Source: a virus. From it: DNA of 64,000 nucleotides. The notes beneath the pieces were generated by a model, which made no database searches, was not told the origin of the DNA, and saw nothing but the letters and a program-made list of their open reading frames with translations. Below are positions 1-56,695 of this stretch, piece after piece. Position 1 is the first letter of the stretch, and every line of letters begins with the position of its first letter. The position numbers were made by a program, and so were the translations under genes. Location: UHGV virus genome UHGV-1351772; one strand, given 5' to 3'.

Positions 1-3000
1 GTTAAGACAGGCGATAAAATGGTGTTAACCTTAACGAAAACCGATTTCGGTATCGATAAGATGGATAACACCATGCCGATCGCTAAACCGGTAACAAAAG
101 CGTTAGCGAATGTGCTGAAAAATAAAAGTGTGAAGGCGCACACGCATACCACTGCCGATTTGGATAATGTCCCGATTGGTAGCGCAACGGTGGACGGTAT
201 CTTACAACTGTGGGATGCGATTGATACCACGAATGATAAAGCCGTCACATCACGCCAAGGGTGGCTGTTCGCAAAAGAGATTAAGAGGGTCTCTGATAAA
301 CTGAATACCCTCTTGCCCGCATGGACAACGGCCGGGAGCAAATATACCAACAATTCGATATTGCCGATCTTGTCGATGGGTAATTACGAAGGTTATGGTA
401 AAAACATGGATGCGCTCCAGATGGTTATAGGGGTACAACAAGGTAAGCTTTATGCTTTAATTAGCTCTAAATCCGCCCTTCCGGGAACTGAGGGTATTTA
501 TTACGCTGTTGCTGGGTTAAAAAACGACAAAAGTCTCGGTGAAATTTACAAAACAACTTTCCGTTATAAGCCGAAAGGGTTAGAGACGAATTATCCGGGG
601 GTGGAATTAAAAGAAATTACCGTTACTGGTACCGAAGCATTTATAGCGAAGGGCAGCGACGATAATTATTATTTAGTTAAACTGAACGGTTCAATGGATT
701 ACAGCAAACATACCGATGTCAGGTTGGTAACTTTCTCAGAATTTGTTTCAGAAACAACATGGGAATTTGTGCCTAATATGTTCATGGATCGTGTGGTCAT
801 AGCCGATAACGGTGTCTATGTTTTGCGTACGATGCTAATGGCCGATCTGAAAAACAATACTCTGGTGGACTACATTAAGGATACCCCACAACCCATGTTC
901 CGTGTTGGGTTATTGCGGCTTAATAAAACCGATCGGTTTGAACAGGTTGATTTAAGGTCTACACGAAAAATCGGTAAGTGTGCCGATTTGGTTGAACCTG
1001 GCGCGTTCGATGTAGATAATCCGAATACGAAGCGCCTTGCCTACTTCACTGCGGAAGGCAAGGCGCTGTGGACAGTGAATTTACAATTAACTAGAGGGTC
1101 GTCAAGATGGATAACGCCCGTTGTTAAGGACGGTCACTTGTTAACCGTCGGCGTGTCTGGCGTTTGTCTTGGTTTTTCTTCAACGAAAGGTACCACGTTC
1201 GGGCCATGGAATGGTGCTTATCGTCTTGACCTATTAACCGGGGAGGTTGGGTTAGAGACAACTAACGTCTTCCCAATCAAAATCGATACTACAGGCTGTT
1301 ACTTAAAAGACGGAACAAAAATAGAGCTGAAATGGAAATGGGCTACTCGAAGTTCTGGCTATATGGCCGACAATAGAATCTGTGTCGGTGATATGGTTTA
1401 TTCTTGCTGCTGTTCGACAGAAAAACAACTCGCACCATCTCTCCATTACCAGAAACTCCCAGAAGGGGTTAGTTATCTGGACTATGTTAAGTTGAGTGTG
1501 GGGTATGAGGGGCAATCTACGTTTGAATATCGGATAAACCCTGTGGTGGGTTCGGTGTGGAAACCGTCTATGACCTTCCCATTGTTCTTCCCAGGAACAA
1601 ACAAAGTATGGCTTAAACATCAAAAAACGGCTTATTTCATTGAAGCCGAATATGATAAAAATACGACTTACGGTTATCCTGGATACGGTGGTTTTGGACC
1701 AACATCCCGCCGTGTTGAAAAAACAGCGAACGAATACGGCATATTGACAAATATACCGCTGGTTGTTACGCCAGACATACCGAAAGGTCTACTAGATGGG
1801 GCTTACTTTATCGGTGCTGAAAGTAAACCATGTAAAGTTGTTTACGGTACCACTACGGTGGCTAGTGATCGGTTGTCTATCGATGCGGCAGAATGGGCGA
1901 AGTTGACTAATATTGTTCAGTCCAGCCAGTTCTCTGGGGCTTCTAACGGCAACGCCTATGAGCGGATTAGCGTAGCTAAGACCAAAAAGAACAACTACAG
2001 TTTGTCCTTTTGGGTGCTTGGTCAAACGATGTCTGGTGGTCCGCTTTGTATCGCGATAGTGAGTCTTATCTATAAAGACACTGACGGGGTAAATAAGTTT
2101 GCTTTTTACTTCTTTCAGGTAAAACCGACTATAACCAACGGGGTCATAAGGTTCGTTAGTTCGGAAGCGAGAATGATGACGTTCAGGGAAAAAGTGGCCA
2201 GTAACGCCATTAATCTCTCACCCACAGCTTTTAATGGTGAACTTAAACAACGCTACGGTCAAGTTTTCCTTTATTCGCAAGACGGACAAAAGTTCAGATT
2301 CTCAATACATAACCTGGTTGGCGGGAATCTTGTAGGATCAGAGATTTCTTTTGCTTTTGGGATAAACTTGACTAAAAAAGGAGAATGGTTTACCGGCGAA
2401 ATTCATCGGGCGCGGGGCTATACGTATACGCTGAATAATACATCTGAAGTCTATATACCCGATCTCTCGGGCATCGCGCTATTGACTTGTAACTCGGAAG
2501 ATTTAAACGAGTTGTATCTCGGTGGCGAACAGTATAGAATCTCTGATTTGTTTAACAAAAAATATACTGTTATCGATAAGATTATTATTGGCGGCGTACA
2601 AACACAGAGCGGTTGGAATTTCTATCTGACGGAGGAAACCGAGTTAAGTTTTGGAAATAAAAGATATACCGTTCCAAGATGGTCCGTTGATTTAAGCGAT
2701 GAATTCCCGACTAATCACGCTAACCAGACATTCTACGTTTATGCTGAAGTGGTCGGTTCTACTGCCCAATACCGCATCGGTTTAGAGCAGTTAGCTGATA
2801 CCTCGTCGAGACTGTTTGTTGGGACAGTAACCACTGATTCGAACCGTATTACGGATATCAGTATCGATAAAGTAAAACGGTTAGGTCGTGTAAAAGAGCT
2901 GGAAAATCATGCCTCGGTTGTTGATCAGCACGATGTGGCGCAGGCGTTCGACAGGAAAACTGGTCCACTATTAACAGTGGTTAATAAACCCGTTAAAGCC

Positions 3001-10725: not shown

Positions 10726-11256
10726 TTAGGACGTAAAACCGTCCAGCTCACCGTTGGTGGTGGCCAGGTCAATACGATTATCAACAACTTTCGGCGTAAT
10801 TACGAAAGTTGCCATTACACCCGGTTTATATCGGAGGTTCTTTTCAGTAACGGTACACGTTACCGTACGCAGAGTGACGTTATCATGTTCGTCTTTCTGG
10901 TCTTCGGTGTTGTACACAACGTCGCCTGGTGCGATAGCATCGTTCGGTTTAACTTTATTGATGTAATATTGTAACCAAGCGCGCAGTTCATTTTCTTGAA
11001 CCCAGCGAGACAGATCGTCAGTTAGTTCAATACGGCCTACAACACCCGGTTCCAGACGATCGTAATGCAGTTCGATTGCGCCTTTGAAATTCTCAGAACC
11101 CGGTAGTGCAGTCATGGTAACTTTGGTATTCTTACCTTCGCCTTCCAGCGCAGTAGGGAGACCAAAGGACACTTCTTTATCAGTTACCTGATGTGGTAGC
11201 TCAGTGTTAGCAGCATTATAAAGCGCGACCAACATCATCTGGTTAGTAGCTGCCAT
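10726..11256 (-). CDS. hypothetical protein, small-protein paralog family (member 1 of 6)
   Basis: 176 aa; shares with 11323..11853 the pattern NTK(V/I)T(M/L)TA...(S/Q)NFKG...HY.RL and the C-terminal ELDGFT. Confidence 0.6.
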   Translation of the reverse strand: MAATNQMMLVALYNAANTELPHQVTDKEVSFGLPTALEGEGKNTKVTMTALPGSENFKGAIELHYDRLEPGVVGRIELTDDLSRWVQENELRAWLQYYINKVKPNDAIAPGDVVYNTEDQKDEHDNVTLRTVTCTVTEKNLRYKPGVMATFVITPKVVDNRIDLATTNGELDGFTS

Positions 11257-11304
11257 TATCTTAAATCCTCAATAGTACGAGTTAAAGAAATATCGGGGAG
11301 GTTA

Positions 11305-11314
11305 CCCCCCCCCC
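11305..11314. repeat. homopolymeric C10 tract (G10 on the minus strand), intergenic
   Basis: Ten consecutive C read directly; lies about 50 nt upstream of the minus-strand start at 11256. Confidence 0.9.
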
Positions 11315-11322
11315 GACTTTAA

Positions 11323-11853
11323 TTATTCTTTAGGAGACGGTGCGGTGAAGCCATCCAGTTCACCTTCCAAACCGCTCAGTGCTACTTTCTCAGGAGCCGG
11401 AGGAGTAACTTTATACGTCGCGACAGTACCAGGCAGGAACTTCAAGTGGCCAGCCACAACCGTTACCACGTAAATGGTTTTGCCTTCTTCTTCACGGGAA
11501 ATAGTTTGCAGGTCGTTTTCACCGAACTCGTCATCGGTGTACCCTTTCTCAGCCATGGCTGCGTTAACTTTCGCCAGGATCTTCGTTGGTGAATCGAAAT
11601 CGGTAGTAGGTGCAGTTACTTCAACTTCACCAACGATGTCGCAGGAAAGACGAGTATAGTGGAATTCTTTCTCGCCTTTGAAGTTCTGGCTTTCTGCCTT
11701 GGCGGTCAGAGTAATTTTAGTGTTGCGGCCAGCTTCTCCGGTGAACTCAGCGACAGCACTAAAATTAACATCATTTACAGTCAGCTTAGAAGCAGTTTGG
11801 TTGTTTTTAGCAATTACAATCTCGATAAGCTGCTGTTGAAAAGTTTTAGCCAT
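11323..11853 (-). CDS. hypothetical protein, small-protein paralog family (member 2 of 6)
   Basis: 176 aa tandem paralog of 10726..11256. Confidence 0.6.
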   Translation of the reverse strand: MAKTFQQQLIEIVIAKNNQTASKLTVNDVNFSAVAEFTGEAGRNTKITLTAKAESQNFKGEKEFHYTRLSCDIVGEVEVTAPTTDFDSPTKILAKVNAAMAEKGYTDDEFGENDLQTISREEEGKTIYVVTVVAGHLKFLPGTVATYKVTPPAPEKVALSGLEGELDGFTAPSPKE

Positions 11854-11992
11854 TGTTTTACCTCGTAAGTAGTATGGGTGGTTTGCATAGTATTGTTCGG
11901 ATTATAGAAGTGTTGTTAATAGTTATGACAGACAGCAGTAAGGGTTGTCTGTAAAATTATTATTTTTTAACTTTTTATAGAAGGGTGAAAAC

Positions 11993-12472
11993 ATGCTAAA
12001 ACGTTTTCTACTTGTTGTAACTGCAGCACTTTCGTTGGCAAGCTGTGCCCTACAACCCACCGCTAACGGTCAATTCTCGACTGTACCCGTAGAGCCACAC
12101 GACATGGTTATTTACACCTGTATGGGTGTAGAGCAAGATTTTGTAAATTATAAACCTGTCGTCAATTCGACTAACCTAATGTTAGGCTCAGTAACTGTAA
12201 TCGATACTGGTGCTAACTGGGTAGCCACCTGGCCAAATGGTAAGATTGAGTCACCCCAACTTTATAAAGATCTATTAGGTAAAGTTAATGGGAATATCGA
12301 TCCTATCACGGGACAACGTTACTACCGTGTAAATGGGTTACTTTCAAAAACACCAACATTTGCGTATTCTACTTTAGAATATAAAACGGGTGATGGTAAA
12401 GGCATTACTTTCTTCCACTGTAAGGAAGGTGTAGCTCCTGACACTGGAACAATGCTCCATCCTGCGGAATAA
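11993..12472 (+). CDS. putative lipoprotein (moron-like; candidate superinfection-exclusion factor)
   Basis: Signal peptide with lipobox LASC (MLKRFLLVVTAALSLASC); isolated plus-strand gene with AT-rich upstream region and its own terminator. Confidence 0.6.
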   Translation: MLKRFLLVVTAALSLASCALQPTANGQFSTVPVEPHDMVIYTCMGVEQDFVNYKPVVNSTNLMLGSVTVIDTGANWVATWPNGKIESPQLYKDLLGKVNGNIDPITGQRYYRVNGLLSKTPTFAYSTLEYKTGDGKGITFFHCKEGVAPDTGTMLHPAE

Positions 12473-12480
12473 TAAAAACT

Positions 12481-12520
12481 ACCCTACTCCTTATCGGGAG
12501 TAGGGTATATTCATTTTAAC
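12481..12520 (+). terminator. rho-independent terminator after the lipoprotein gene
   Basis: Stem ACCCTACTCC / GGAGTAGGGT followed by a T-rich stretch. Confidence 0.5.
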
Positions 12521-12590
12521 CGCTAAATCGTGCGTAAAACGCGTTCTAAGCGTCTTTATACAAATTAAGGTATAAACACCTTAGAAATAG

Positions 12591-13106
12591 TTAAATCTCG
12601 ACTAAGGCGCTCCAATCGATTGGTTTTTGCTTAACAACCTTCACAGTGCCACGATTTGGTGACCAGAAAGTAATGTTAGGCTGGTTACGAACGTCGATGT
12701 GTAACCAACTGATGTCACATTCAATAAAGTGAATGAACGGAAACTCGTCGGGGTTAGCAGCGATATAGTCGTGAACCTGTTTTACGGTGCTATCCAACAA
12801 CGTTGCATCAATGGCGTTACCGAATTTGTGCTGACTTCCTGAATCGGCGTAAAGCTGTAACGCACGTTGTTTATAACTACCACCCTTAGGCTTTTCTTGA
12901 TTAATAAAGAAATCTAAGGTTCTTAGTCCGCGTTGTTGTGAAGCGGTTGAGTTAATCACCATTCTACCGAAACGATTACGAATCTGTTGTAGCGAAATCA
13001 TTAACAACGGGTTCATAAACCGGATTGCAGAATCGCCGTATTTGGCAATATAAGACTGTGGTACTAACTCTCTGAGTTTAAAATTACTCGGATTTGGATG
13101 AAACAT
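12591..13106 (-). CDS. peptidase M15-like peptidoglycan hydrolase (L-Ala-D-Glu endopeptidase-type lysin)
   Basis: Zn-binding signature SQHKFGNAID (S-x-H-x-x-G-x-A-x-D) and downstream WLHID, as in M15 phage endolysins. Confidence 0.65.
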   Translation of the reverse strand: MFHPNPSNFKLRELVPQSYIAKYGDSAIRFMNPLLMISLQQIRNRFGRMVINSTASQQRGLRTLDFFINQEKPKGGSYKQRALQLYADSGSQHKFGNAIDATLLDSTVKQVHDYIAANPDEFPFIHFIECDISWLHIDVRNQPNITFWSPNRGTVKVVKQKPIDWSALVEI

Positions 13107-13758
13107 CTTCCCTCCCTGACAGAAAAGCGCGTTTGATGTTCAGGTATTTGACATTAACGGGTTGTTCTGTGGTGATATCAATACGTTCGTGGTTAGGGAT
13201 TGCAGGTTCCTTAAACTCGCGAACGAATAAATAGTTTCGATTGTAATCTAACGTACGAAACGCGTTAGTGCTGTAGGATGGTTTTGCATTAGGATCTACG
13301 TAGGCATCCCAGCCGAATTCAACAACGGCCTTATAAAATGTTTGGCAGATATAAGGCGAGATTTCCAACGACTGCATAATACGCAGGAATGTTAAGTCAG
13401 AGAACTCTTTATCGATAATACGCGAAACGTTACCACCCGGTGTCATGGGATAGCTACGCTCCGTGTTACATTTTTGATAGAGTAAGTCGTGAATACACGC
13501 AGCCGGTGCCCAAGGCCCGTCAGGATGGAAAATTCCCTGTAAGCGTTCGGGTATCGACGCTAAGTCCGTTACGAACCCTTTCGGAGCGGTTAACCACAGT
13601 TGCGTGTCAGGTAATACACCGGTTAAATAAACCGCACGGTCTAAGTGTACGTGGTCGTGATAAATCTCACGTAACGTAAACGGATAATGGTAATCCTCCG
13701 TTAATACAAACCACTTATTATCTAAACGTTTATATTGAAGCTTTTCCATTACCCACAC
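13084..13758 (-). CDS. DUF1353-like protein
   Basis: Motifs GFVTDLASIP and IHDLLY recalled as typical of DUF1353. Confidence 0.45.
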   Translation of the reverse strand: MWVMEKLQYKRLDNKWFVLTEDYHYPFTLREIYHDHVHLDRAVYLTGVLPDTQLWLTAPKGFVTDLASIPERLQGIFHPDGPWAPAACIHDLLYQKCNTERSYPMTPGGNVSRIIDKEFSDLTFLRIMQSLEISPYICQTFYKAVVEFGWDAYVDPNAKPSYSTNAFRTLDYNRNYLFVREFKEPAIPNHERIDITTEQPVNVKYLNIKRAFLSGREDVSSKSE

Positions 13759-13865
13759 CTTTCCTTACAAAAACCAGAAGAATTCTTGCCCACGTTTTTC
13801 GTCTTTACGTTTTCGACCAGACGTTAACGCTTTCCACAATAACACTAAGAGTTTAGCAAACCAGT

Positions 13866-14456
13866 TCATTTTACTAACCCCGCTTTCACCGCATAATCTG
13901 CCATTTCTCTGAACACGCGGCCGTACCAGCCGTAGGTGTATTTCTCGTTTCTCTTACGTTTTTCGGAGATTTCCGTGTAGTAAGTTACTTGGTGCGAGAT
14001 TAACGCAAAGATTAAAATGCTTAACCCTTTATCTTTACGGTATTTCAGATACGCGTTCAACGCGCCCAGCGTTTTAGGCCCCATTCCACCGTCAGCATCG
14101 ATGTCCGCGTAGAGTTTACCTTCGTTGTTCAACACGTTGAGAATACGCTGGAGCGATTTCACGCAGTTGGCACGACCTGCGTTAATTCCGAAATCAAACA
14201 TCCGGTCAGCCAGTAAAGGCGAGATAGCAAAAATCTCATCGAGTTTGAGTTTCTTCCACCAACCACGATCGTAAATGTCAAAAGCTTGAACACGGGTAAG
14301 GTCTTTCATTTTCCCTTTATAACCATACTCACGTGCAGTCGTTACCGTGATACCGTGGTTCGTTTCTGCACCTAAGTCGTCAGGGTCGTTGACGTACCCG
14401 CCTTCTAAATCCGTTTTGGATTCAATAATACCTTCTTTAGTCCAACGTTCAGCCAT
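13866..14456 (-). CDS. GH108-family lysozyme-like protein with C-terminal peptidoglycan-binding domain
   Basis: N-terminal EGGYVNDPDD...ETNHGIT signature (GH108-like); C-terminal region resembles PG_binding_3. Confidence 0.65.
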   Translation of the reverse strand: MAERWTKEGIIESKTDLEGGYVNDPDDLGAETNHGITVTTAREYGYKGKMKDLTRVQAFDIYDRGWWKKLKLDEIFAISPLLADRMFDFGINAGRANCVKSLQRILNVLNNEGKLYADIDADGGMGPKTLGALNAYLKYRKDKGLSILIFALISHQVTYYTEISEKRKRNEKYTYGWYGRVFREMADYAVKAGLVK

Positions 14457-14474
14457 TTTGTTTAACTCCCATTT

Positions 14475-14517
14475 TACACAAAAAAGAAAAACGTTGGGTG
14501 GGTTTTACCCCACCCAA
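14475..14517 (-). terminator. rho-independent terminator (minus strand)
   Basis: Stem GGGTGGG / CCCACCC followed on the minus strand by a T-run. Confidence 0.6.
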
Positions 14518-14520
14518 ATC

Positions 14521-15018
14521 TTACTTGGATTTTCGTGCACGAGTTGTACGTGCTTTAGCTGCTTTTGGCGCAGGTTCAGCATCTTCAGCAGTTTTACGTG
14601 CAACGCGCACCGTAAAACCGCCTACCCAGGTTAAACATTCAGGGCGGAAGAAAATACCGTGTTCGATTGCGCTACCGTCTAACGGTAACTCGCCGACCTG
14701 CTCTACCCACACGTCGTCTTCTGTAAGGGTTAGGCTGTACTGCTCGTTAATGACGGGCAGTAAGTCAGCGGTAGTCGTTGCAGATTCTACCAACAGCTTC
14801 GGTAATACGTTCAGGAAATATAAACCTGCGTCAATGCGGTTATACTGGAACGTTTGTTCGTTAGTGTAACCGAGATTCTTAATTGACGCAACCGTAATTT
14901 CGGTATTGTAAGTACCGGTGGTCACAACCGGATCGCCCAGCGTGACTTTGGCGGTGTCAAGCTCAGCGTCTGGGTTAGCCTTTTTAATAAGGTCGAAGAT
15001 AGTTTCTTGACTGGTCAT
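14521..15018 (-). CDS. hypothetical protein, small-protein paralog family (member 3 of 6)
   Basis: 165 aa; N-terminal (I/L)xxLI(K/N)...TxxDV pattern and ADLL..IN..Y.L block shared with 15032..15880. Confidence 0.55.
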   Translation of the reverse strand: MTSQETIFDLIKKANPDAELDTAKVTLGDPVVTTGTYNTEITVASIKNLGYTNEQTFQYNRIDAGLYFLNVLPKLLVESATTTADLLPVINEQYSLTLTEDDVWVEQVGELPLDGSAIEHGIFFRPECLTWVGGFTVRVARKTAEDAEPAPKAAKARTTRARKSK

Positions 15019-15031
15019 TACTGTAATCCTC

Positions 15032-15880
15032 TTAATCTAAGAATCCCGGTAAGACCGAATTAGTTTTAGCTAATTCAATCTTCGACTTTGGACGATCGGT
15101 ACCGTTAAAATGGATTAACAGATTACCGGTCAGGTTAGAACACAACGGGCTGAGCGTCAGCACCAACACACGTGTGAACTTCGTATTTGCGCCTTCGAAA
15201 CCTGCGGTAGGACCATCGTAGATAACCTTAGCACCGTACAGGTTATTAGCAGCGTTCTTAGGTACACTTACCCATTTCTCGTCAACGACGTTATCCAGCT
15301 TAGTAGCTAACTCAGCCAGGTCGACGGTGTCGTTAATGGTAATCGGATCGAGGTAATCTTTTTCTGCGGTGAAGTCAATTGGGTAAGAATAAACTGCAGC
15401 GTTACCTTTCTTAGTGGACGGATACTCTACCAGGTTTTCTAATTGAGTAACAGGTAACAATTTAGCCAGATCAATAGGGTCGCGTAGCGTGAGTGTCACC
15501 TCGCCACACCATTCGTAGGATTTCTCGTTAGCGGTAAGCTGATGGGTTTCACCTTCAACTTTCGCATCAATGATATCCGACGGCAGAATATTTAAATCGT
15601 ATTTTGCGTTGATTGCATTAAGCAAATCTGCAGCGGTTACAACACCGTCGTTACCGAATACCAACTCACCTGTTAGGTATTCGGGCAAATTACGACGATG
15701 ATAAGTCACAGTTAAAGTAGTAGACTCATCGCCTTTGAGTTTAGAAGTCAGAACCACCTGGGTATCAACCCCAGTACCAGTAGGTTCGCCGATATCAACA
15801 TCACTGAAGGTCAATGGCGGAACAATATTGTTTTCAGTGTTGATGAGTTTTAGCAGTTTCTGTTTTGACGTAAGAGACAT
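15032..15880 (-). CDS. hypothetical protein, small-protein paralog family (member 4 of 6, extended)
   Basis: 282 aa; LTFSDVDIG and AADLLNAINAKYDL blocks. Confidence 0.55.
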   Translation of the reverse strand: MSLTSKQKLLKLINTENNIVPPLTFSDVDIGEPTGTGVDTQVVLTSKLKGDESTTLTVTYHRRNLPEYLTGELVFGNDGVVTAADLLNAINAKYDLNILPSDIIDAKVEGETHQLTANEKSYEWCGEVTLTLRDPIDLAKLLPVTQLENLVEYPSTKKGNAAVYSYPIDFTAEKDYLDPITINDTVDLAELATKLDNVVDEKWVSVPKNAANNLYGAKVIYDGPTAGFEGANTKFTRVLVLTLSPLCSNLTGNLLIHFNGTDRPKSKIELAKTNSVLPGFLD

Positions 15881-23914: not shown

Positions 23915-26041
23915 TTAAATAACTACCCAGCTTTTACCATCAGAGCCAATCTGCATTAGCGTAATACTTTCATTGGTCTCAATGGGTTTGGCAAGACCTT
24001 CCGTCCCACTCTTTGGAGTGATGAGAACGTTTGAGTTTTCCGGTTTAACGATGATCTTACCAGCCTTATTTGCCACGATCTGTATATTTCTACCCACACT
24101 ATATTCTAGATCAGGAATAGTAAGTTGGCCGCCACGGTTGGTGGCTGGGAAATACACATAAGACGACACATCTTCCTCAGATAACACTATACCACCAGAA
24201 TCACGATTGACCGAGATCTCAAACTTAGAAATATCGATATCGTAGGCAGTAACTTTCGTAATATCCGTCAGAACCAATTCGTTCAAATTGGTCTTAGCTG
24301 TACTGTTCGCCAGATCAAATGGGGTACCTTCCGTACCGTCAAGCACAGGCGTGACTTTGATTTTATTGTCACCCGGATAAATGATTTCAAACGTATGCCA
24401 GTTATTATCGTACGCACCAAAAGATCCTAATTGCACATTCTGCTTTTTATGATGCATCAGATAAAGATTCGTACCGTCGGTCTGTAAGAAAAAAGACATT
24501 AAGTACGGGTTCGTATCAGCCACACCAGCGTCAGCAAGTGTAGTACCAGAAGGTAGGTCGGACGCGGAAATACGCCAATAAAGTCCTAATCCGAAACGAT
24601 CTGCTGCTAAATCACCTTTTAGTCTAAAAGTAACGGTCAGACGTCCACCGTAACGTATCATGTCCGCAGCAGATGTCATTGACTTAGTTACATTCCAAGG
24701 TTTCATCGTTACAGCCTTTCTTAATTCGACGAAATGCCCGTTTCCATCCTCAGAATCTTGCACGGTTACGTTACAATCAACGATATTGTTCCAACCCTGC
24801 CCTTTCAGGGAACCATCTCCACGACGTCCGTTATAACCCACAGACTCTACTAATGGGGTATAGCTTCTTACCACATTCATATTGTCTTTGAGCTCTTTAG
24901 TGTCGTTCTTCGTCAGGAGCATTGCACCATTCGCTGTTCTTGATAATATCTCAGCAGCTATTCTCTCTGAGATAATACCGCGTCGTGCCCAAGAACTGAA
25001 ATGGCTATTCCTTGTTTCAGACGTCCAGTTTTTATTACTACGGGTGGCAGCACCGTAGTAGGCAGCACCAGCGATATCAGGATCGTCAGTGGGATCATTA
25101 GTCGGTACACGTTGGCCATTATCGTCGTACATGAATGGAACAAAAAAGATATTTTTTTGTTCATTGTTACGATAATTACCGTATATGGTTTCATATTGAA
25201 CAGGATATTTTTCCTTCCAATAGTAGGTAGTGTCCCCGCAGATCCATGGTACTTCGGCGGTGTCGTACTCGGGCATCTGAGAGAGATGGTCAGAGAGATC
25301 AGTTCGGAAACGCTCTACCATTGCCATAAATAACGCTGGTTGTTGTGCGTAACCTACTTTAGTCAGATCATACTCCCCCTGCATCCACACTACAGCCAAG
25401 AGTTTATTTTTAGGATTAACGTCCAGAGCTTTTTTGGTCCGGCTAACTAAATCTTTATAAAGAGGTTTTTCCACCCCCCATACCGATGACGTCGCAGAGG
25501 CTCCTGTGGCTTCATCGAAGGTACCTTCTGCACCACCCGTGAAAGCAGAACCGCCGCGTGCGCAGGGTACTAGTAAGATACCAGCGTTGCTAGGAATATA
25601 CGGGAGAAGACGCTTCGCGATGTGTAGACCTTGACCCACACATCCGTATTCACCTTTGTCCAAATTGGCTTTGGGGTGCGAGAATACGGACATATCTTGC
25701 ACGTCGTGCAGACAGTGATCCGCTGGAATGACGTCGTTATACTTACAATCAGCACCATTAGGCGTTACCTTCGCACGGCGCGCCATTTGTTTAATCCGCG
25801 GATCGGGAGCGTCCAACGTCGCTGGTAAAGGCAATCCTTCACCATAACTCATCGCATTAGATTGCCCGGCTATAGGGATCACGAAGTAATAATCCGGTTC
25901 CGTCACCCCCCCCCCTTGAAGTTCTGCAATATCAATTTTATATTCTTTTTCTTCCTTAGAAAGGAGAACTACCGCACCTTTGAGATCGCCAGAGAAATTG
26001 TCGAGTTCATGGATACGTTTCTTTCCAATTGGTTGAACCAT
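23915..26041 (-). CDS. tailspike/tail-fibre protein with sialate-O-acetylesterase-like (SASA/SGNH) domain
   Basis: GGAGGT RBS before the ATG at 26041 (track start 26053 is TTG); N-terminal 40 aa homologous to the N-terminus of the 1519-aa fibre; GQSNAM esterase motif. Confidence 0.65.
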   Translation of the reverse strand: MVQPIGKKRIHELDNFSGDLKGAVVLLSKEEKEYKIDIAELQGGGVTEPDYYFVIPIAGQSNAMSYGEGLPLPATLDAPDPRIKQMARRAKVTPNGADCKYNDVIPADHCLHDVQDMSVFSHPKANLDKGEYGCVGQGLHIAKRLLPYIPSNAGILLVPCARGGSAFTGGAEGTFDEATGASATSSVWGVEKPLYKDLVSRTKKALDVNPKNKLLAVVWMQGEYDLTKVGYAQQPALFMAMVERFRTDLSDHLSQMPEYDTAEVPWICGDTTYYWKEKYPVQYETIYGNYRNNEQKNIFFVPFMYDDNGQRVPTNDPTDDPDIAGAAYYGAATRSNKNWTSETRNSHFSSWARRGIISERIAAEILSRTANGAMLLTKNDTKELKDNMNVVRSYTPLVESVGYNGRRGDGSLKGQGWNNIVDCNVTVQDSEDGNGHFVELRKAVTMKPWNVTKSMTSAADMIRYGGRLTVTFRLKGDLAADRFGLGLYWRISASDLPSGTTLADAGVADTNPYLMSFFLQTDGTNLYLMHHKKQNVQLGSFGAYDNNWHTFEIIYPGDNKIKVTPVLDGTEGTPFDLANSTAKTNLNELVLTDITKVTAYDIDISKFEISVNRDSGGIVLSEEDVSSYVYFPATNRGGQLTIPDLEYSVGRNIQIVANKAGKIIVKPENSNVLITPKSGTEGLAKPIETNESITLMQIGSDGKSWVVI
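25906..25915. repeat. homopolymeric C10 tract (G10 in the mRNA) inside the tailspike coding sequence
   Basis: Ten consecutive C read directly; encodes GGG plus the first base of Val at codons 43-46, at the junction between anchor and enzymatic domain. Confidence 0.9.
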
Positions 26042-26076
26042 TGTAACCTCCAATTTTTAAACCAATACTCTTCCGG

Positions 26077-26349
26077 TTAGCGCGACATACCGTTCTGTGA
26101 TAAGGCAGTACCAACGATAAGTTTAACCGGGGTTTGTTCTTCCGTAATAGGGATTTCATCGAGATTGTTGATATCAATAGTAACATCATGGACTTTAGGC
26201 ATTGTTACCAAGATAGTCAACATTACCACCGATGCTTTTGTGGAAGTATCCGCAACGTGATATTTAACGTCCAGTAATTCGTTACTTTCAGATAAGTAGA
26301 GCATTTGCGGATAGATTGTTATCGATGTAAAAAAAAATACCAACACCAC
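26077..26349 (-). CDS. hypothetical protein
   Basis: 90-aa ORF between fibre-module genes. Confidence 0.4.
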   Translation of the reverse strand: MVLVFFFTSITIYPQMLYLSESNELLDVKYHVADTSTKASVVMLTILVTMPKVHDVTIDINNLDEIPITEEQTPVKLIVGTALSQNGMSR

Positions 26350-26363
26350 TTAAGTTTTAGCCA

Positions 26364-26879
26364 TTAATGATCTCCGAAGGTTAATGCACAATTATCTGCG
26401 GTAACGATTAAATCGTCGTCTTTTGTTACTGCGGCTTCTTCACCGTTACCGAAAACCAGAACAGAGAATTGACCTTTATAACCTAATGAACCAGGCGATA
26501 CCTGCAACGTTACCGCGTCTTTTCCTACAGTAAATGAATCATCTGTTAGATCTTCAGCTTGTAAGTTACTGCCACAAGCTGCGTTAATCGCTTCGATTAA
26601 ATCGTGTGTGGTAAACCCTTCCCCGGCTACTTTTACCAGAATAGGTTGCTGGTTTAACCACCGCTCTGCGGTTAAACGGTTGTAATAGATCTGCAACGTT
26701 CTGTTTCCAGGACGCTTAATCTTTACAACGGCAGTGGTGTCACGATTCATCTCTTCAGTAGGATTTACGTTGCTGAACTCAACCTCGTTTTCTTGCAGAT
26801 CGAGCTGAAGGTCGTGGTTGATCAGCGATATAACCATGTTAGTTGAAGTTAATGATAAATCTGGTGTGAATTGCCCCAT
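26364..26879 (-). CDS. hypothetical protein, small-protein paralog family (member 5 of 6)
   Basis: GGAGGT RBS before the ATG at 26879 (track start 26894 lies in the RBS); N-terminus FTPDLSLTS...ISLINHD parallels 33100..33660. Confidence 0.55.
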   Translation of the reverse strand: MGQFTPDLSLTSTNMVISLINHDLQLDLQENEVEFSNVNPTEEMNRDTTAVVKIKRPGNRTLQIYYNRLTAERWLNQQPILVKVAGEGFTTHDLIEAINAACGSNLQAEDLTDDSFTVGKDAVTLQVSPGSLGYKGQFSVLVFGNGEEAAVTKDDDLIVTADNCALTFGDH

Positions 26880-26977: not shown

Positions 26978-27481
26978 TTAGCTAATTCTCAAATCACGTA
27001 GTGCGCCTGTTGACTTCATCACGTTTTGGAACGCAGCGCTGATGTTATTAGTCCAGTAATAATGCTGACCGTTAATAACTTGCTGGTAAGACAGCGCGCA
27101 GGTGTTGCCACCTAAGTTTACAGTGATGTTAGAGGCTCTGCCGCCTTGTAAGTAAACCGCTAAAGTAGGCTTTGCGTTAGCAACTACCGTCGTTAACTGT
27201 AACTCGATACCTACTAAAGTTCCCACCCCGCAGTTACCAGCGTTTTGAATGGTTCCCTGATTTTTCTGGTTTAACGGCCAGCTTGGTCCTACTGCGCCCC
27301 ATTTCTTACCTAAAGAATCGCTATATGCAGCGGTTGCAATTTTACAGCCCATAGATCGTCCCACCATTTGACTCATCATAAAAGGTCTACCCAATCCTAA
27401 TTTACTACCCGCAGCGCTCATCCATTGTTGGCCAGTTTCATTCCTAGCTGAAGATCCGACCCATCCTGACGCTACCCCCAT
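26978..27481 (-). CDS. glycine-rich protein (short paralog of 27498..28280)
   Basis: GGAGGG RBS; N-terminus GWVGSSARNETGQQWMS matches GWIGSSAKAEAGNGWMS of the neighbour. Confidence 0.55.
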   Translation of the reverse strand: MGVASGWVGSSARNETGQQWMSAAGSKLGLGRPFMMSQMVGRSMGCKIATAAYSDSLGKKWGAVGPSWPLNQKNQGTIQNAGNCGVGTLVGIELQLTTVVANAKPTLAVYLQGGRASNITVNLGGNTCALSYQQVINGQHYYWTNNISAAFQNVMKSTGALRDLRIS

Positions 27482-27497: not shown

Positions 27498-28280
27498 TTA
27501 AACACGTGAACCGTATATTGCACCTACTGCGTCCCATCTTGGCGCATTACCAGTAACAGCTGCACCAGCTGCTCCGCCGTTATATTCTGTACCGTTACCT
27601 TGAGTATTACATCTTCCTCCACCAGCACCGACATTACCACCCGAACCGCCTGTATATGCACTAAGAGACCCCTCACCAACAGATCCTCTACCAGGAGCGG
27701 AAATAGTACCAGCAGCCGCACCGGAACTCATATGAGAGGAAGACCCACCAGCACCGAATGGGCGACCACCGCCACCACCAAATATTAGTCTACCCCTGTT
27801 ACCGCCGCCACCGCCACCACCGCCTCCGGCAATAGCGCCACGGTTGGTTATACGCAGTCTGTTTCCTATTCCGTTCTGTATTGCGGTTCCACCTGCACCG
27901 CCTGGTGAGTTAGAACCGCCGTTGCCTCCTCTGCCGTATACTGTAACCCCAGGATTGATGATGAGGGTAATATACGAATTTGGAAGATTGCTAGGGAACT
28001 CTAAACAAGGAACCCCGCTACTATAAGACACTAAATCCCCTGTAATGGTCACAACGACAGCAGTAGAGCCTATGGAACGTAAATAGTTAATAAGCGTATC
28101 TTTATTGTAATTGTGATTAGCCCCGATCGAATACTGAGCCTCTTTTGATTTTCCCGCCAATTGCGACATCCAGCCTGGGACCGGCACACCAAGTGTGCGC
28201 ATCGCGCCAGACATCCAACCGTTACCAGCTTCAGCTTTTGCTGAAGAACCAATCCATCCGGGAGTCGCTGATACAGACAA
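27498..28280 (-). CDS. glycine-rich protein with poly-Gly segments (possible fibre-associated structural protein)
   Basis: Probable TTG start at 28280 after AGGTGG RBS (the track ORF runs to 28331 with no RBS); G9 and G5 runs plus GGxGG repeats. Confidence 0.5.
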   Translation of the reverse strand: MSVSATPGWIGSSAKAEAGNGWMSGAMRTLGVPVPGWMSQLAGKSKEAQYSIGANHNYNKDTLINYLRSIGSTAVVVTITGDLVSYSSGVPCLEFPSNLPNSYITLIINPGVTVYGRGGNGGSNSPGGAGGTAIQNGIGNRLRITNRGAIAGGGGGGGGGNRGRLIFGGGGGRPFGAGGSSSHMSSGAAAGTISAPGRGSVGEGSLSAYTGGSGGNVGAGGGRCNTQGNGTEYNGGAAGAAVTGNAPRWDAVGAIYGSRV

Positions 28281-28337
28281 AATAACCACCTTATAACGTA
28301 CTTGTGAGTCAGTGAGGGGGTTTCCCCTCACTGATAA

Positions 28338-31300
28338 TTATAACTTGGTCTCAATTATCTCCGACAACTCCTTTATTGCCTCAATAAGTAGAGCTATTTG
28401 GGCAGAGTTAGAGACCGTCAAAACGTCCTCACCATTAGCGTCTTTATAAGTAGAAACTGCTTCAGGTAACACTTTTTGTAAGGTCTGCGCTACAACACCA
28501 GCCTCACGATGAACATTAGTGGATTTAAAGTTCTCCTTTTTGTCGTATATTAAACCTGACAATTTCTTTACCTTCTCCAATGCATTAGTTATTGGAGAGA
28601 AATTACTTTTCAGTCGGGCGTCTGATCGTATATAAACGTCGTTAAAGTTACCGTTTCCACCACAAACCCAAGTACCGTCGTTTTGCAAATAAGCATTACC
28701 GTCAGTGCCATTATCAGTACGTGAGTTGTTTATCATGTAAAAGCCAAATTGACTGTTACCTAAACCACCAACAAAATATTTCCTATCAGCATGGTCTTGT
28801 CTTAACAATGCCTGAGCAGAACTAGTTCCTACCTTATTAAGACCAAAAATAACGTTATGGTCTCTCATGCTAATCCAAGAACCTGAGTTGCTGTTAATAG
28901 AATATCTATTTGCATAAACCCAAGTATTGGTTCTTATATCTCCGGTAACGTTGAGAGGTTTATTGCTTTGAACAGCCCCACTCGTAAAGCGTAAAACATG
29001 AGCATTATTGGCGTAAACATCTAGAACACCATCCCCGTTCTGCTTAAGGCCGGTGTCATTATCCCCTAAAACTATAGAGTTCCCGCCTAAAGCATTAGGG
29101 GTTCCAATACCCAATGCCCCATTCAATTGACCGCCAGATAATGGCAACGCCCCAACATCCGCAGCAGTTGGCTTGTTTCTCGTATTGTACACGCGACGCC
29201 AACCTGGTGAGTAAGCATCGCCGTTAAATACGTAGATAAACTCCGCATTAGTGAGTGCGCCGGAGACGCTCGTCGTTGTGGCGGTCGTTATACGGATCGT
29301 GTAGTTGTTTGTGCTATTGCCATTACTAATCACTTCTATAACGGCCCCAGCTAACGGAATAGCCCCACAACCCGTCTCGCTGTGTGGTATGTGCGCACTA
29401 GCGGCATAAGCCCACGCACAACGAGCAACCCACGATCTTGTGGTAAACGCGCCGTTATTTTTCAATAACGTCACTAGCTGTGCTGTAGTTATTGCAGCGC
29501 CATCAGCGCCAGTTTCTAACCAACCACTAGGCGATGCCGGGCAACCTATATCGGCAGGCCCTAACGATATATTTCTAGTGCCGTCAAATGCGATACCGTT
29601 AATGGTACGAGCTGTCTGCAACTTTGTGGCCGTGGCTGCGTTTCCGGTAGTCGACTGATTACCCGTCTGGTTTACACCAGGTAAACTGATGTCTTTAGTA
29701 CCATCAAAAGCCACACCGCCTATATTTCGCGCAGTCTGAAGTTTAGTCGCTGTCGCAGCATTACCTGTCGTATTCTGGTTGCCTTGCTGGTTAACCCCCG
29801 GTAAATTGATATCCCCAGTACCGTCAAACGTAACCCCACCAATTCTGCGAGCGGTTTTCAGTTTCGTCGCGGTAGCGGCGTTGCCGGTAGTATCTTGATT
29901 ACCTGTGGTATTTACGCCAGGAATGCTGTCACGGGCAGTATAAACTTGTGCCCAATCTGACCACGGCGCATCCGCTGTATCACGTCGACTACGAATATAA
30001 ACGGGTGCGTGCGCACCACTCGTCCCCGACCATCCGATTAACAACTCACCTTCACCTAGCGCAGTAGCGCCACCCAAATGCAGTAAGTTACCATAAGCGG
30101 TAGGATAACCGTTATTGTAAACTTCGTACATCTGAATACCAGGCGTACCTTTGTTTGAACCGGTTAGTGCAGTAACCCGACCACGACCCACCAAGGTGTT
30201 GATATTGATGTCAGCAGAACCATCGAATCTCACACCGTTAATATTTCTGGCAGTTTGAAGTTTAGTGGCTGTACCGGCATTACCCGTGGTGTTTTGATTA
30301 CCTTGTTGGTTAACACCCGGGAGGTTAATATCACCACTGCCGTCGAAAGCGACTCCACCAATTCTACGTGCGGTCTTTAATTTCGTTGCGGTTGAAGCAT
30401 TGCCGGTTAACTCGCCTGCTAACCCTTTTGCAAAGGTCTGTTTTTCTGCCCAGGTGTGTGCTGCATTCAATACAGGCATCTGGCGCGGTGTAATCGTACG
30501 ACTACCTTTCTCACCAGCGATACGTACTGCAAAGAATCGATAGTTGGCAGTAGACACCGTACTACGCCAAACCAACATACTCCGGGCTGAGGATGCGCCA
30601 TCTGATGGACCAACCAGAATGCTAACTAGGTTACCGTCAATAACACCCCAATCCATTCCCGTAGGAATGTTTTTCATGGTGTTAAGCGGCGTACAGATTA
30701 ACTCACCTGGTTTAAAGTCATAGGTTTGCCAGTCTAAAGGATCAACATTCGCACGTTCACCGCCGATACCTAATACCAGCGGAAGCGAATACGATGTGAA
30801 AACCTCACGCCAATCGCTCCAAGCGTTACCCGTACGGATACGTTGGAATTTACGACCTTTAGTTTCTACACCCGTACCGTATGTAGTATAATTCTGTTCG
30901 ACCCCTGTACCGTCTAAGCGTAAGGTAACTTCACAAACACCTAATATGGTTTCACCAGAAGAACCGGTAAGTGGGCCATTAGTTGCTTCACCAGTGACAC
31001 TGAAACGTCCCGGTTTAACGAGATCGTTAAAATTGGCTTTAAAGAAAGCACCGTCAGTCTGATAACCAACCTGAATCCAATCTTCCCATTGCGGGTTTGA
31101 TGAATCCCACGTTGCGGTCAAACCACGAACATACATCGTACCACGACGTGTGGTGTATCGTTGCAACCGTCCGAAAAGACCACCTTCCATTACTTCTAGT
31201 ACGCCTTGCGCGCCACCACCTTCTTCAGGGTAATGTCTGCTAAAAACAGCCAGCGAACTGGACGAGTTTCGCCAGTTACCCATATGCTCAGCGCCACCCA

Positions 31301-32897
31301 GAGAGTTCAAGTCTATAGAGGTAGATAACGGACGTACACCAGTAGTTACCATTCTCCACGGTGACCAGGGTCCATTGGCACCATTCCACGCACCTGACAA
31401 CATACGGTTGTACACGTTACCATTACGACAGGTAAAACGTTGCGCACCGCTGTAATTACCGGCTTTATACACTTCCAGATAACCGACCGCACCGTCTTCT
31501 GGGAAGTGTTTTGCCATCGACGCATTGGTTGACGTCGACTTAGCCCACGTTCCTGTGTAATTGGCATCTGGAGCAAATGTGTTAATATCGGCATCCGCAG
31601 GCATTTCACCACGGAAACGCAGATAGGTGTCAGGCGATAGACCGATATTGCGGGCAAACGTTTCTTTATCTGGGATATCAGCGCCGTTAGAGTTTTTCTG
31701 TAACGCGCTATTCGCTTTATCTACAGTGGCTTTTAATCCCAAGAAATTGATGATATCCGCAGTTGTCCCTTTCGCTAACAGGGTTCTGGCTGTTTCTGTA
31801 AAGTCAGTTAATCCGACTTTATTAGCACCGGTGAAATAGGGGAGCTTGTTTGCTGCGGATGTGACTGCGGCAATAGCGGTGAGTAGCGGACTGATAGGTT
31901 GCTTCTGCGCAAGTTTCTCAGTAATCGTAGTCGCGAAGTTAGGGTCATTACCTAACGCCTCGGCTAATTCCGCTAAGGTATCTAACGTTTCAGGTGAAGA
32001 CCCAACCAATTCCGCAATCGCGGCACGCACCCAAGCCGTTGTGGAGATGCTCGTGTCGTTTGAATCTTTCGGGGGTGTTGGTGACGTCGGCTTACCCGTA
32101 AAATTCGGCGAATGTTTGTTAGCCTTTAACTGTAGTTCGTCATTCAACTGCTTAACTGTAGACGGTGTAGCAGCCTCCGTCACGGATTCGCTAGTCAGGG
32201 TATTGTTAAGTTTAACGATACCTTTACCAGTCGTACTAGCGTCGATTAAGCCCTGTGCAGCGATTTTCTCCGCACGCAGTGCAGCTGATTCCGAGCGCGT
32301 AGCTGCGCCTTCTGAGCTTTCTTTATCTTTCGTGACCTGCGCAGCAACCTTTTCCACTGCGCCCTTACTGGCCTCAACTGAAGCTGCGGTATTTGCGATA
32401 CTGGTAGCCGTCTGTTGTACTTGCCCGGCTTTTTGCGTAACCGTTTCTGCTTTCTTAGTTACATCAGCCGCTGCAGCCGTCACCGATTGTTCGCTTGTAG
32501 CGATAGCTTGAGCTTTCTCATTTACCGACTGTAATACAGTATCTACGGCAGTTTTCGCGGCTAAAACTTCAGCGTGTTTTTTGCTAACCTCAGCAGTTTT
32601 AGTGGCAACGGTTCCCGCTTGCTCGCTAACTGTGGAAGCTAACGTGTCAGTTTGTTGCTTCGCTGTTTCTGCTAAGTCTTTTGCTTGTGTGGCTTCTGTT
32701 GCAGACTGTTGCGATTTGGCCGCCGCCGTTTGTGCGTCAGCAACCGCGTTTCTGACGGTGTCAATATCCGCAACAATCTCGCGGACAGGTAACTGATAAT
32801 CCCTTTCGTCTTTCGAAAAAAGTAAAACGCCTTCACCGATATCCCCGGTGTATGGACGTAAATCGTGTAAACGAATTTTCTTTACCGCTTTAGCCAT
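28338..32897 (-). CDS. long tail fibre protein with C-terminal intramolecular-chaperone (peptidase S74-like) domain
   Basis: 1519 aa; repeated TGNAxTATKLxTAR(N/R)I(G/N)GVxFDG units; C-terminal SDARLKSNF motif typical of self-cleaving chaperone domains. Confidence 0.75.
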   Translation of the reverse strand: MAKAVKKIRLHDLRPYTGDIGEGVLLFSKDERDYQLPVREIVADIDTVRNAVADAQTAAAKSQQSATEATQAKDLAETAKQQTDTLASTVSEQAGTVATKTAEVSKKHAEVLAAKTAVDTVLQSVNEKAQAIATSEQSVTAAAADVTKKAETVTQKAGQVQQTATSIANTAASVEASKGAVEKVAAQVTKDKESSEGAATRSESAALRAEKIAAQGLIDASTTGKGIVKLNNTLTSESVTEAATPSTVKQLNDELQLKANKHSPNFTGKPTSPTPPKDSNDTSISTTAWVRAAIAELVGSSPETLDTLAELAEALGNDPNFATTITEKLAQKQPISPLLTAIAAVTSAANKLPYFTGANKVGLTDFTETARTLLAKGTTADIINFLGLKATVDKANSALQKNSNGADIPDKETFARNIGLSPDTYLRFRGEMPADADINTFAPDANYTGTWAKSTSTNASMAKHFPEDGAVGYLEVYKAGNYSGAQRFTCRNGNVYNRMLSGAWNGANGPWSPWRMVTTGVRPLSTSIDLNSLGGAEHMGNWRNSSSSLAVFSRHYPEEGGGAQGVLEVMEGGLFGRLQRYTTRRGTMYVRGLTATWDSSNPQWEDWIQVGYQTDGAFFKANFNDLVKPGRFSVTGEATNGPLTGSSGETILGVCEVTLRLDGTGVEQNYTTYGTGVETKGRKFQRIRTGNAWSDWREVFTSYSLPLVLGIGGERANVDPLDWQTYDFKPGELICTPLNTMKNIPTGMDWGVIDGNLVSILVGPSDGASSARSMLVWRSTVSTANYRFFAVRIAGEKGSRTITPRQMPVLNAAHTWAEKQTFAKGLAGELTGNASTATKLKTARRIGGVAFDGSGDINLPGVNQQGNQNTTGNAGTATKLQTARNINGVRFDGSADININTLVGRGRVTALTGSNKGTPGIQMYEVYNNGYPTAYGNLLHLGGATALGEGELLIGWSGTSGAHAPVYIRSRRDTADAPWSDWAQVYTARDSIPGVNTTGNQDTTGNAATATKLKTARRIGGVTFDGTGDINLPGVNQQGNQNTTGNAATATKLQTARNIGGVAFDGTKDISLPGVNQTGNQSTTGNAATATKLQTARTINGIAFDGTRNISLGPADIGCPASPSGWLETGADGAAITTAQLVTLLKNNGAFTTRSWVARCAWAYAASAHIPHSETGCGAIPLAGAVIEVISNGNSTNNYTIRITTATTTSVSGALTNAEFIYVFNGDAYSPGWRRVYNTRNKPTAADVGALPLSGGQLNGALGIGTPNALGGNSIVLGDNDTGLKQNGDGVLDVYANNAHVLRFTSGAVQSNKPLNVTGDIRTNTWVYANRYSINSNSGSWISMRDHNVIFGLNKVGTSSAQALLRQDHADRKYFVGGLGNSQFGFYMINNSRTDNGTDGNAYLQNDGTWVCGGNGNFNDVYIRSDARLKSNFSPITNALEKVKKLSGLIYDKKENFKSTNVHREAGVVAQTLQKVLPEAVSTYKDANGEDVLTVSNSAQIALLIEAIKELSEIIETKL
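29560..29940 (-). repeat. tandem about 120-nt coding repeats within the fibre gene (three copies)
   Basis: Nucleotide and protein repeats (TATKLQTAR..NG..FDG) read directly. Confidence 0.7.
30180..30410 (-). repeat. second block of the same fibre repeat (two copies)
   Basis: Same repeat unit as 29560..29940, separated by about 240 nt of unique sequence. Confidence 0.65.
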
Positions 32898-33099
32898 GAT
32901 ATTTAATTCTCTATCGGGAGCTAAAAGATCTGAGGAAGTGTTTTACCCCTCAACATTTTTATAAGCGGATTATTATACTGGTTTTAATCCATCATCTTCT
33001 AACGTGAAAGTGATGCCCAACTCCGCGCTTCATGATTTGGGATTGTTAAGTTTTGATAAAAGTTTGCTTTGGCCTCCATTACCGGTAAAACGGTCAAGT

Positions 33100-54493: not shown

Positions 54494-54500
54494 GATTCTC

Positions 54501-56684: not shown

Positions 56685-56695
56685 CGGAGACCCCA

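Follow-up and report, generated by a model that had tools for sequence, protein, structure and literature searches.

Proteins of the DUF7941 family are among the most abundant and least understood components of chimallivirus virions. In Salmonella phage SPN3US they were described as "paralog family B" (gp83, gp138-154, gp160/161, gp237 and, as a candidate, gp122), a set of paralogs that may be larger than any other in a phage genome (PMC5105663; PMC5694885). In phage Goslar, DUF7941 was described as chimallivirus-specific, with ten paralogs and estimated copy numbers per virion of about 580 for gp22 and about 2140 for gp23 (bioRxiv 10.64898/2026.04.21.720040). In the Goslar proteins an N-terminal domain is followed by a disordered linker and, in some, by a C-terminal domain; AlphaFold 3 models have the linker and C-terminal domain of one subunit docking on the N-terminal domain of the next, and purified gp22 forms filaments. 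Three Goslar paralogs carry carbohydrate-binding, glycoside hydrolase or leucine-rich repeat (LRR) domains as fusions, and the authors propose a baseplate-anchored "fibre cloud" (bioRxiv 10.64898/2026.04.21.720040). In the outer peripheral baseplate of phiKZ, each gp139 band has a single gp127 as its end cap (PDB 9XQD; PMC13250141). The analysis presented here concerns seven small genes, designated A to G, in a 64,000-nucleotide (nt) stretch of virus genome UHGV-1351772 (the window, meaning the whole stretch). Their products are almost certainly paralogs within the Chimalliviridae-specific DUF7941 family, which is the same as SPN3US paralog family B.

The window reveals no new kind of system. 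The family is already known, which the first-pass annotation of this DNA had not recognised, and the window adds members from a phage lineage that is undescribed. What the analysis contributes is an explicit link between the SPN3US and the Goslar/phiKZ literatures, a candidate docking peptide (ELDGF) together with natural concatemers, and a cassette consisting of a gp122-type gene and a module-bearing receptor-binding gene. The lineage carries a compact, eight-member version of the family in which the architectures are easily told apart, making it convenient for settling function. The Goslar preprint calls DUF7941 newly identified, without citing the 2016-2023 SPN3US work on the same family; it also gives the PDB code as 9QXD, and the entry found in this analysis is 9XQD.

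All seven products score above the curated gathering cutoff of the Pfam model for DUF7941 (PF25613; 276 positions, cutoff 27 bits), with 38.4 bits for A, 37.8 for B, 99.2 for C, 180.9 for D, 64.6 for E, 68.4 for F and 50.5 for G. The first-pass annotation had proposed A to F as a family of six paralogs, and as far as it went this was correct: the six open reading frames (ORFs) can all be found on the minus strand with a plausible Shine-Dalgarno sequence ahead of each, and six of six clear the cutoff and are orthologous to the SPN3US family. The count of six was too low. G was recovered with a hidden Markov model (HMM) of the six proteins (E = 2.4e-8), and a scan of a complete relative in the same lineage with subfamily HMMs gave eight members, namely the orthologs of A to G and one more. 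This eighth member adjoins a tape-measure-like gene outside the window, and its C-terminus resembles the ending of A, B and G. ORF 49095-49757 was considered as a further member and rejected (HMM E = 0.067, no Pfam match, a different PHROG family). A to F match PHROG families 1037, 2935, 3589 and 4862, which are mostly labelled "virion structural protein".

Pairwise similarity beyond composition, on which the proposal of a family depended, is present. By BLASTP, A and B are 33% identical (E = 4e-24), E and F are 34% identical (E = 2e-34), and D gives collinear N-terminal matches to E, F, B and C (E = 3e-4 to 4e-3); some pairs are weak, such as A with C, E or F (E > 0.1). As a control, HMMs were built leaving out one subfamily at a time, and scores were compared with those of 2000-3000 shuffled sequences. 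B, C, D and E scored 22-29 bits, against 11-12 bits for the best shuffle; A alone was marginal against the C-G model (14.7 bits; best shuffle 12.1), and the small A-D model did not recover F or G in this test. Alignment with hhalign of a profile of 24 gp160-type proteins to one of 48 long forms gave a probability of 98.2% (E = 2.9e-14, 161 columns). Together, the leave-out controls and the profile-profile alignment indicate that the similarity is real. The diverse homologs were gathered with a query seeded by the SPN3US paralogs, plain homolog searches having mostly returned near-identical members of the lineage. As to the shared motifs first noticed, NTK.T.TA, NFKG and HY.RL are common to A and B, and the (V/L)TxxDV(x)F block is found in its strict form in B only and in a relaxed form, [VLI][TSDQ]xx[DENK][VI]x[FILV], in A to F.

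Protein searches and gene order reveal that the window is part of a jumbo phage of about 222 kilobases (kb) that is syntenic with SPN3US (genus Seoulvirus, family Chimalliviridae). The correspondence extends gene by gene over gp81-84, gp120-124, gp138 and gp156-163, and by this synteny the window phage can be placed in the Chimalliviridae. As the comparison with related phages shows, the SPN3US orthologs of the window genes occupy syntenic positions. A (10726-11256, minus strand, 176 aa) and B (11323-11853, minus strand, 176 aa) are short forms with an N-terminal domain and a linker. A matches phrog_4862 (E = 6e-34) and is 36% identical to SPN3US gp160 in the syntenic position (E = 4e-29); B is a second gp160 co-ortholog (45% identical, E = 4e-39). 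Because both match a single SPN3US gene, gp160 is duplicated in the window phage. C (14521-15018, minus strand, 165 aa) has the N-terminal domain followed by a basic low-complexity tail (residues 140-165, nt 14524-14601), lacks the linker motif, covers positions 7-155 of the 276-position profile and is closest to the N-terminal half of gp141 (38% identical, E = 4e-22). D (15032-15880, minus strand, 282 aa) is full-length, covers profile positions 5-275 of 276 and is the gp138 ortholog (45% identical, E = 2e-72); within the lineage it is about 93% identical, with one variant at 80%.

E and F are short members of the gp122 type. E (26364-26879, minus strand, 171 aa) lies upstream of an esterase gene, matches phrog_2935 (E = 5e-26) and is 33% identical to gp122 (E = 1e-28); its C-terminus (...LIVTADNCALTFGDH) is without the ELDGF motif. 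E homologs in the lineage are 72-99% identical, and are thus more variable than D, with the variation concentrated in a surface loop and the C-terminal tail. F (33100-33660, minus strand, 186 aa, GTG start) lies upstream of a fibre gene and is 45% identical to gp122 (E = 2e-45), and the order DUF488 gene, F, fibre genes is kept. E and F had been counted as a tandem or near-tandem pair, but 6.2 kb separates them, with the fibre and Gp38 adhesin genes in between. G (53966-54493, minus strand, 175 aa) has the N-terminal domain and the linker KLASLVTKLALDGFRPG, and corresponds to SPN3US gp83 by its equal length and its flanking genes, near portal gene gp81. It matches phrog_2935 (E = 2.5e-48), is 64% identical to the Seoulvirus homologs of SEGD1 and SPFM2 by tblastn, and is single copy in 62 phage records. 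The neighbours of G, within 53086-56741 on the minus strand, are 54501-56741 (gp82) and 53086-53973 (gp84), and the next gene is the divergently transcribed portal gene (56696-59413, plus strand).

An alignment of the seven proteins with diverse homologs separates three architectures around a shared N-terminal domain. In A, B and G the N-terminal domain is followed by a linker, and the protein ends right after a near-invariant "...L......ELDGF" peptide. D has an N-terminal domain (residues 1-135), a linker (residues 136-154, IDLAKLLPVTQLENLVEYP, nt 15419-15475) and a C-terminal domain (residues about 160-260), followed by a lineage-specific 22-residue C-terminal extension, TDRPKSKIELAKTNSVLPGFLD (15035-15100, minus strand), that looks like a further linker peptide, similar to the one in the short forms. 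This extension is present in the 80%-identical P0025 and missing in SPN3US gp138 and in the Erwinia-phage homolog P0071. C, E and F combine the N-terminal domain with other C-termini, E and F ending in ...LTFG.... The C-terminal peptides of A (RIDLATTNGELDGFTS, 10729-10776), B (KVALSGLEGELDGFT, 11344-11388) and G (KLASLVTKLALDGFRPG, 53984-54034), all on the minus strand, are equivalent and align column for column with the inter-domain linker of the long forms. In 24 gp160-type proteins with an overall identity of just 30-50%, the C-terminal peptide is the most conserved segment, with F invariant and L, E, L and G each conserved in at least 90%. Such sharp conservation makes ELDGF a candidate docking peptide.

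Structure was modelled for D and B. The AlphaFold2 (AF2) model of D has a predicted local distance difference test score (pLDDT) of 76.8, low over the linker (residues 141-156) and about 90 over the C-terminal domain. Its only significant Foldseek match in the PDB is 9xqd_0 (E = 8.4e-6, probability 1.00, target template modelling score, TM-score, 0.65), which is phiKZ gp127, also matched by D with phmmer (E = 1.9e-7). The model of B (pLDDT 77.8) has the same order of secondary-structure elements as the N-terminal domain of D. In the B monomer the C-terminal peptide has low pLDDT and no structure, in keeping with a peptide that adopts its fold on a partner. The N-terminal helix, initially described as hydrophobic, is amphipathic, spans residues 5-16 and lies within the globular domain; its highest 19-residue Kyte-Doolittle mean, 1.58, is too low for a membrane or signal helix. 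An exhaustive search of a representative library with B found proteins made of tandem units of N-terminal domain plus linker: P0130 (556 aa, three units), P0151 (519 aa, three) and P0152 (342 aa, two). P0142 (1288 aa, 5 matched stretches), which looked like a giant concatemer, is an autotransporter and a false lead.

E and F are distinguished by what lies downstream of them. The 1519-aa tail fibre (gene 28338-32897) and a 712-aa SASA-type esterase (gene 23915-26041), both on the minus strand, begin with a 44-residue module (32766-32897 and 25910-26041; module HMM 81.9 and 84.9 bits, respectively). The module of the fibre is 34% identical to the N-terminus of the esterase (E = 6e-7) and 54% identical to SPN3US gp123 (E = 1.6e-10), with the pattern 'KK.R(L/I)HELD.(F/Y).G......LLSK.E.EY.(L/I)'. 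Outside the module the esterase has the Pfam domains SASA and DUF6645; translation most likely begins with the ATG at 26041 (MVQPIGKKRIHELD...), which brings it into register with the modules of the homologs, and not with the listed TTG at 26053. Cassettes were surveyed in four metagenomic relatives, three further contigs, SPN3US and an E. coli element. Each gene directly downstream of an E/F-type gene begins with the module (66-87 bits), whatever its payload, and the stop and start codons of the two genes often overlap. The payloads after E/F-type genes are an esterase, a 206-aa protein, a 133-aa protein and a 153-156-aa gp123-like protein; five payload types were counted, all module-bearing. 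The slot after E is empty in two genomes.

On balance it seems fairly likely that the DUF7941 members have a structural role in the virion and link into head-to-tail chains through docking of the linker/ELDGF peptide, with E and F as low-copy members on the tail side. By inference from relatives, the flexible peptide of one subunit would dock onto the N-terminal domain of the next, and the docked subunits would build flexible filaments or chains on the virion. A, B and G would be the chain units, D a unit with a C-terminal domain and possibly a second docking peptide, and C, in which the linker peptide is absent, a possible terminator. E and F stand genetically, and probably also physically, beside exchangeable receptor-binding proteins that carry the 44-residue module for attachment. 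The conserved linker peptide and the natural tandem proteins lend indirect support to head-to-tail association, covalent concatemers being expected if the units normally line up in this way. A decoration or structural role, one of those first suggested for the family, fits, as the SPN3US orthologs gp160, gp138 and gp83 are abundant virion proteins.

A more specific and more doubtful proposal is that E and F act as sockets at the tail periphery, into which the 44-residue module plugs unrelated receptor-binding payloads: the long T-even-like fibre with its Gp38 adhesins, the SASA esterase, and the 133-, 153- and 206-aa proteins. If true, this would be a split-gene, plug-and-play counterpart to the DUF7941-receptor-binding fusions of Goslar. 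It would also account for a fast turnover of host range in this jumbo-phage lineage, which persists in Enterobacteriaceae isolates in the form of plasmid-like elements. The idea of a fibre-matched adaptor, also raised by the first-pass annotation, holds in part. It suits E and F, which lie upstream of module-bearing receptor-binding slots and whose ortholog gp122 is found in tailed virions only, like gp123 and gp124. It does not suit A, B, C, D and G, which are not beside fibre genes and whose orthologs are found in tailless heads, and one-to-one matching of adaptor and fibre found no support either. Co-variation was considered as a sign of matched E/module pairs and rejected, the same esterase module being found beside E proteins that share just 73% identity and differ in their C-termini. 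The notion that the module mimics the DUF7941 linker, with which it shares 'ELD.F', was likewise discarded.

Several observations weigh against the proposed arrangement of chains and tail-side attachment. The B model has no significant Foldseek match in the PDB. The E variants do not follow the module type, and neighbouring genes are inherited together in any case. The module profile has no similarity to DUF7941 (hhalign probability 0.2%). Others concern the location of the orthologs in the virion, for which SPN3US provides data in the form of peptide-spectrum matches (PSMs) from wild-type virions and from heads of a tail-tube amber mutant (am107), in three replicates each (Table S2 of PMC10052503). 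The counts for wild type and tailless heads, respectively, are 625/533/592 and 472/580/476 for gp160, 94/85/103 and 96/116/80 for gp138, and 142/150/147 and 124/123/127 for gp83 (PMC10052503). A second tailless mutant, 64_112(am27), led to the same head assignment (PMC5105663; PMC5694885). Two independent mutants thus keep gp160, gp138-154 and gp83 at wild-type levels, so the orthologs of A to D and G cannot be attached to the baseplate alone. These data contradict a purely baseplate "fibre cloud" for the abundant members. In addition, the scarcity of gp122 led the SPN3US authors to score it as "non-virion", with 7/7/8 PSMs in virions and 0/0/0 in heads (PMC10052503). By comparison, gp237, gp123 and gp124 are essentially virion-only, i.e. 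tail proteins (PMC10052503).

The published evidence on location therefore disagrees, with SPN3US indicating mostly the head and phiKZ and Goslar indicating host-recognition filaments of the baseplate. An alternative that takes the SPN3US data at face value is that A, B, C, D and G are capsid components, either internal and ejected or bound to the capsid or neck, that are unrelated to fibres or host recognition, relocation to the tail being limited to a few members, for example gp237 and phiKZ gp127. The SPN3US authors concluded a head location for paralog family B (PMC5105663; PMC5694885), the similar PSM counts of gp160, gp138 and gp83 in virions and in heads of both mutants agree with it, and G/gp83 adjoins the portal gene. 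However, the fusion of several Goslar paralogs to carbohydrate-binding, glycoside hydrolase or LRR domains and the filaments formed by gp22 are at odds with such a role, the genes flanking gp83 (gp82 and gp84) encode tail proteins, and filaments that assemble by themselves could attach to the neck or accompany heads through purification. Considering both sides, a head-only role for A, B, C, D and G appears rather unlikely. Speculatively, filaments located at the neck or capsid, or co-purifying with heads, would reconcile the SPN3US data with those from Goslar and phiKZ. As separate observations, none of the family-B proteins is among the prohead protease substrates (PMC5694885), and gp83 scores as a head protein, yet its neighbours gp82 and gp84 score as tail proteins (PMC10052503).

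For E and F, an assembly role has to be considered instead of a structural one, namely that they are chaperones or attachment factors for the downstream receptor-binding protein and are largely absent from the finished virion. A chaperone function had been listed among the initial suggestions; nothing found here speaks positively for it, and it is retained for E and F only because gp122 is barely detectable in virions. This protein was undetected in wild-type SPN3US in 2017 (PMC5694885) and represented by the 7-8 PSMs of 2023, and there is tight coupling between E/F-type genes and the genes that follow, often through overlapping stop and start codons. On the other hand, gp122 peptides occurred in 3/3 wild-type and 0/3 tailless-head replicates, the pattern of a low-copy tail protein, and the N-terminal domain of E and F is the same as in the abundant structural paralogs. 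The fibre moreover has its own intramolecular chaperone, Peptidase_S74, and in L004 and L005 the long fibre is not beside any DUF7941 gene. It is improbable that E and F serve as assembly factors rather than as tail-side members of the virion. Finally, that there is no family at all and the likeness stems from composition or chance would accommodate the weak pairwise matches of A and its marginal leave-out score, but it is already refuted by the Pfam scores and the profile-profile result, the alignments being collinear and the family having been defined independently in SPN3US by PSI-BLAST, and it can be given practically no weight.

The region around E and F bears traces of exchange. A relic of a gp123-like module-bearing gene (33033-33134, minus strand; 34 codons, MTTQLKKTRLHELDRFTGNGG...; 26.5 bits, E = 9e-7 against the module HMM) overlaps the stop codon of F, as the intact gp123-like gene does in SPN3US; the observation also takes in L003 and L002. 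At the relic site, L004, L005, SPN3US and the E. coli element have an intact gp123-like gene and a gene for a gp124-like 'tail protein' of about 1000 aa. It follows that the window phage lost its gp123-like and gp124-like tail genes, and the long fibre now follows F. The 1519-aa fibre has Phage_fiber_2 repeats and the Peptidase_S74 chaperone at its C-terminus, and its gene is followed by two Gp38-type adhesin genes, one with full GP38 and Gp38_N domains (27498-28331, minus strand) and one with Gp38_N only (26978-27481, minus strand); relatives have one or two Gp38-type genes each. The segment 26978-32897 (minus strand) is thus a T-even-style host-recognition module within a chimallivirus. On the side of E, the esterase gene abuts E in L015, and a 322-nt AT-rich spacer separates the two in the window and in L017. 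The spacer (26042-26363, minus strand) has a GC content of 0.38, against 0.44 for the window, and holds a doubtful 90-aa ORF (26077-26349). Homology between the window and L015 ends about 85 nt before the stop codon of E, suggesting a recombination joint inside the 3' end of E.

Other genes around A to D also have SPN3US counterparts. The endolysin gene (13866-14456) corresponds to gp156 and is followed by counterparts of gp157, gp158 and gp159, and the radical SAM gene of the window corresponds to gp163. The gp158 homolog (12591-13106, minus strand) is the sole stretch alike at the nucleotide level to known phages (75% to Salmonella phages STsAS and SPAsTU), and it matches an 'endolysin' PHROG family and no Pfam family. 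SPN3US gp158 was tail-associated in the 2016 report and non-virion in the 2023 report (PMC5105663; PMC10052503). A megablast search of the region against a phage reference collection gave a single 450-nt match at 75% identity and no close relative there.

Sequences of the same lineage, of about 222 kb, are found among bacterial assemblies. Circular 'plasmids' belonging to it are NZ_CP173450.1, in the complete assembly of E. coli 98232 (from urine, Egypt), and NZ_CP134650.1, in that of Enterobacter ludwigii (about 87% identity). Numerous assemblies of Salmonella and Shigella have the lineage on 221-228-kb contigs in which D is 93-94% identical. Sequences listed for the lineage are P0005, P0025, P0037, P0042 and P0066. 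Such occurrence suggests a carrier or pseudolysogenic state, or contamination of cultures.

Compared with known systems, the window phage shares direct syntenic orthologs with SPN3US: D corresponds to gp138, A and B to gp160, E and F to gp122 and G to gp83, and C is nearest to gp141. In both phages the lysis cluster gp156-159 lies between the array and gp160. The differences are in copy number and detail. SPN3US has a 17-gene tandem array (gp138-154) where the window phage has D and C; gp160 and gp122 are single in SPN3US and each duplicated in the window phage; SPN3US has about 21 members per genome, against eight in the window lineage; and gp138 lacks the 22-residue C-terminal tail of D. In architecture, as far as descriptions allow the comparison, D is like Goslar gp22, and A, B and G are like gp23, and in both phages the family is expanded and tied to host-recognition genes. 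In Goslar, however, receptor-binding domains are fused to the DUF7941 module (gp86, gp92 and gp161), whereas in the window phage the receptor-binding proteins are separate, have a 44-residue module of their own and are encoded directly downstream of a gp122-type gene. PhiKZ gp127 resembles D in sequence, mainly over the C-terminal half, and in the fold of the N-terminal domain, residues 1-150 of gp127; phiKZ differs in having just 2-3 members (gp127 and also gp126), at about 18-25% identity. Phages with multiple receptor-binding proteins, such as CBA120, G7C and K1-5, use a short conserved N-terminal anchor module with swapped C-terminal payloads. By description, the window phage is similar in placing a short N-terminal module on otherwise unrelated receptor-binding proteins, and it differs from these phages in that the neighbouring conserved gene encodes a DUF7941 protein.

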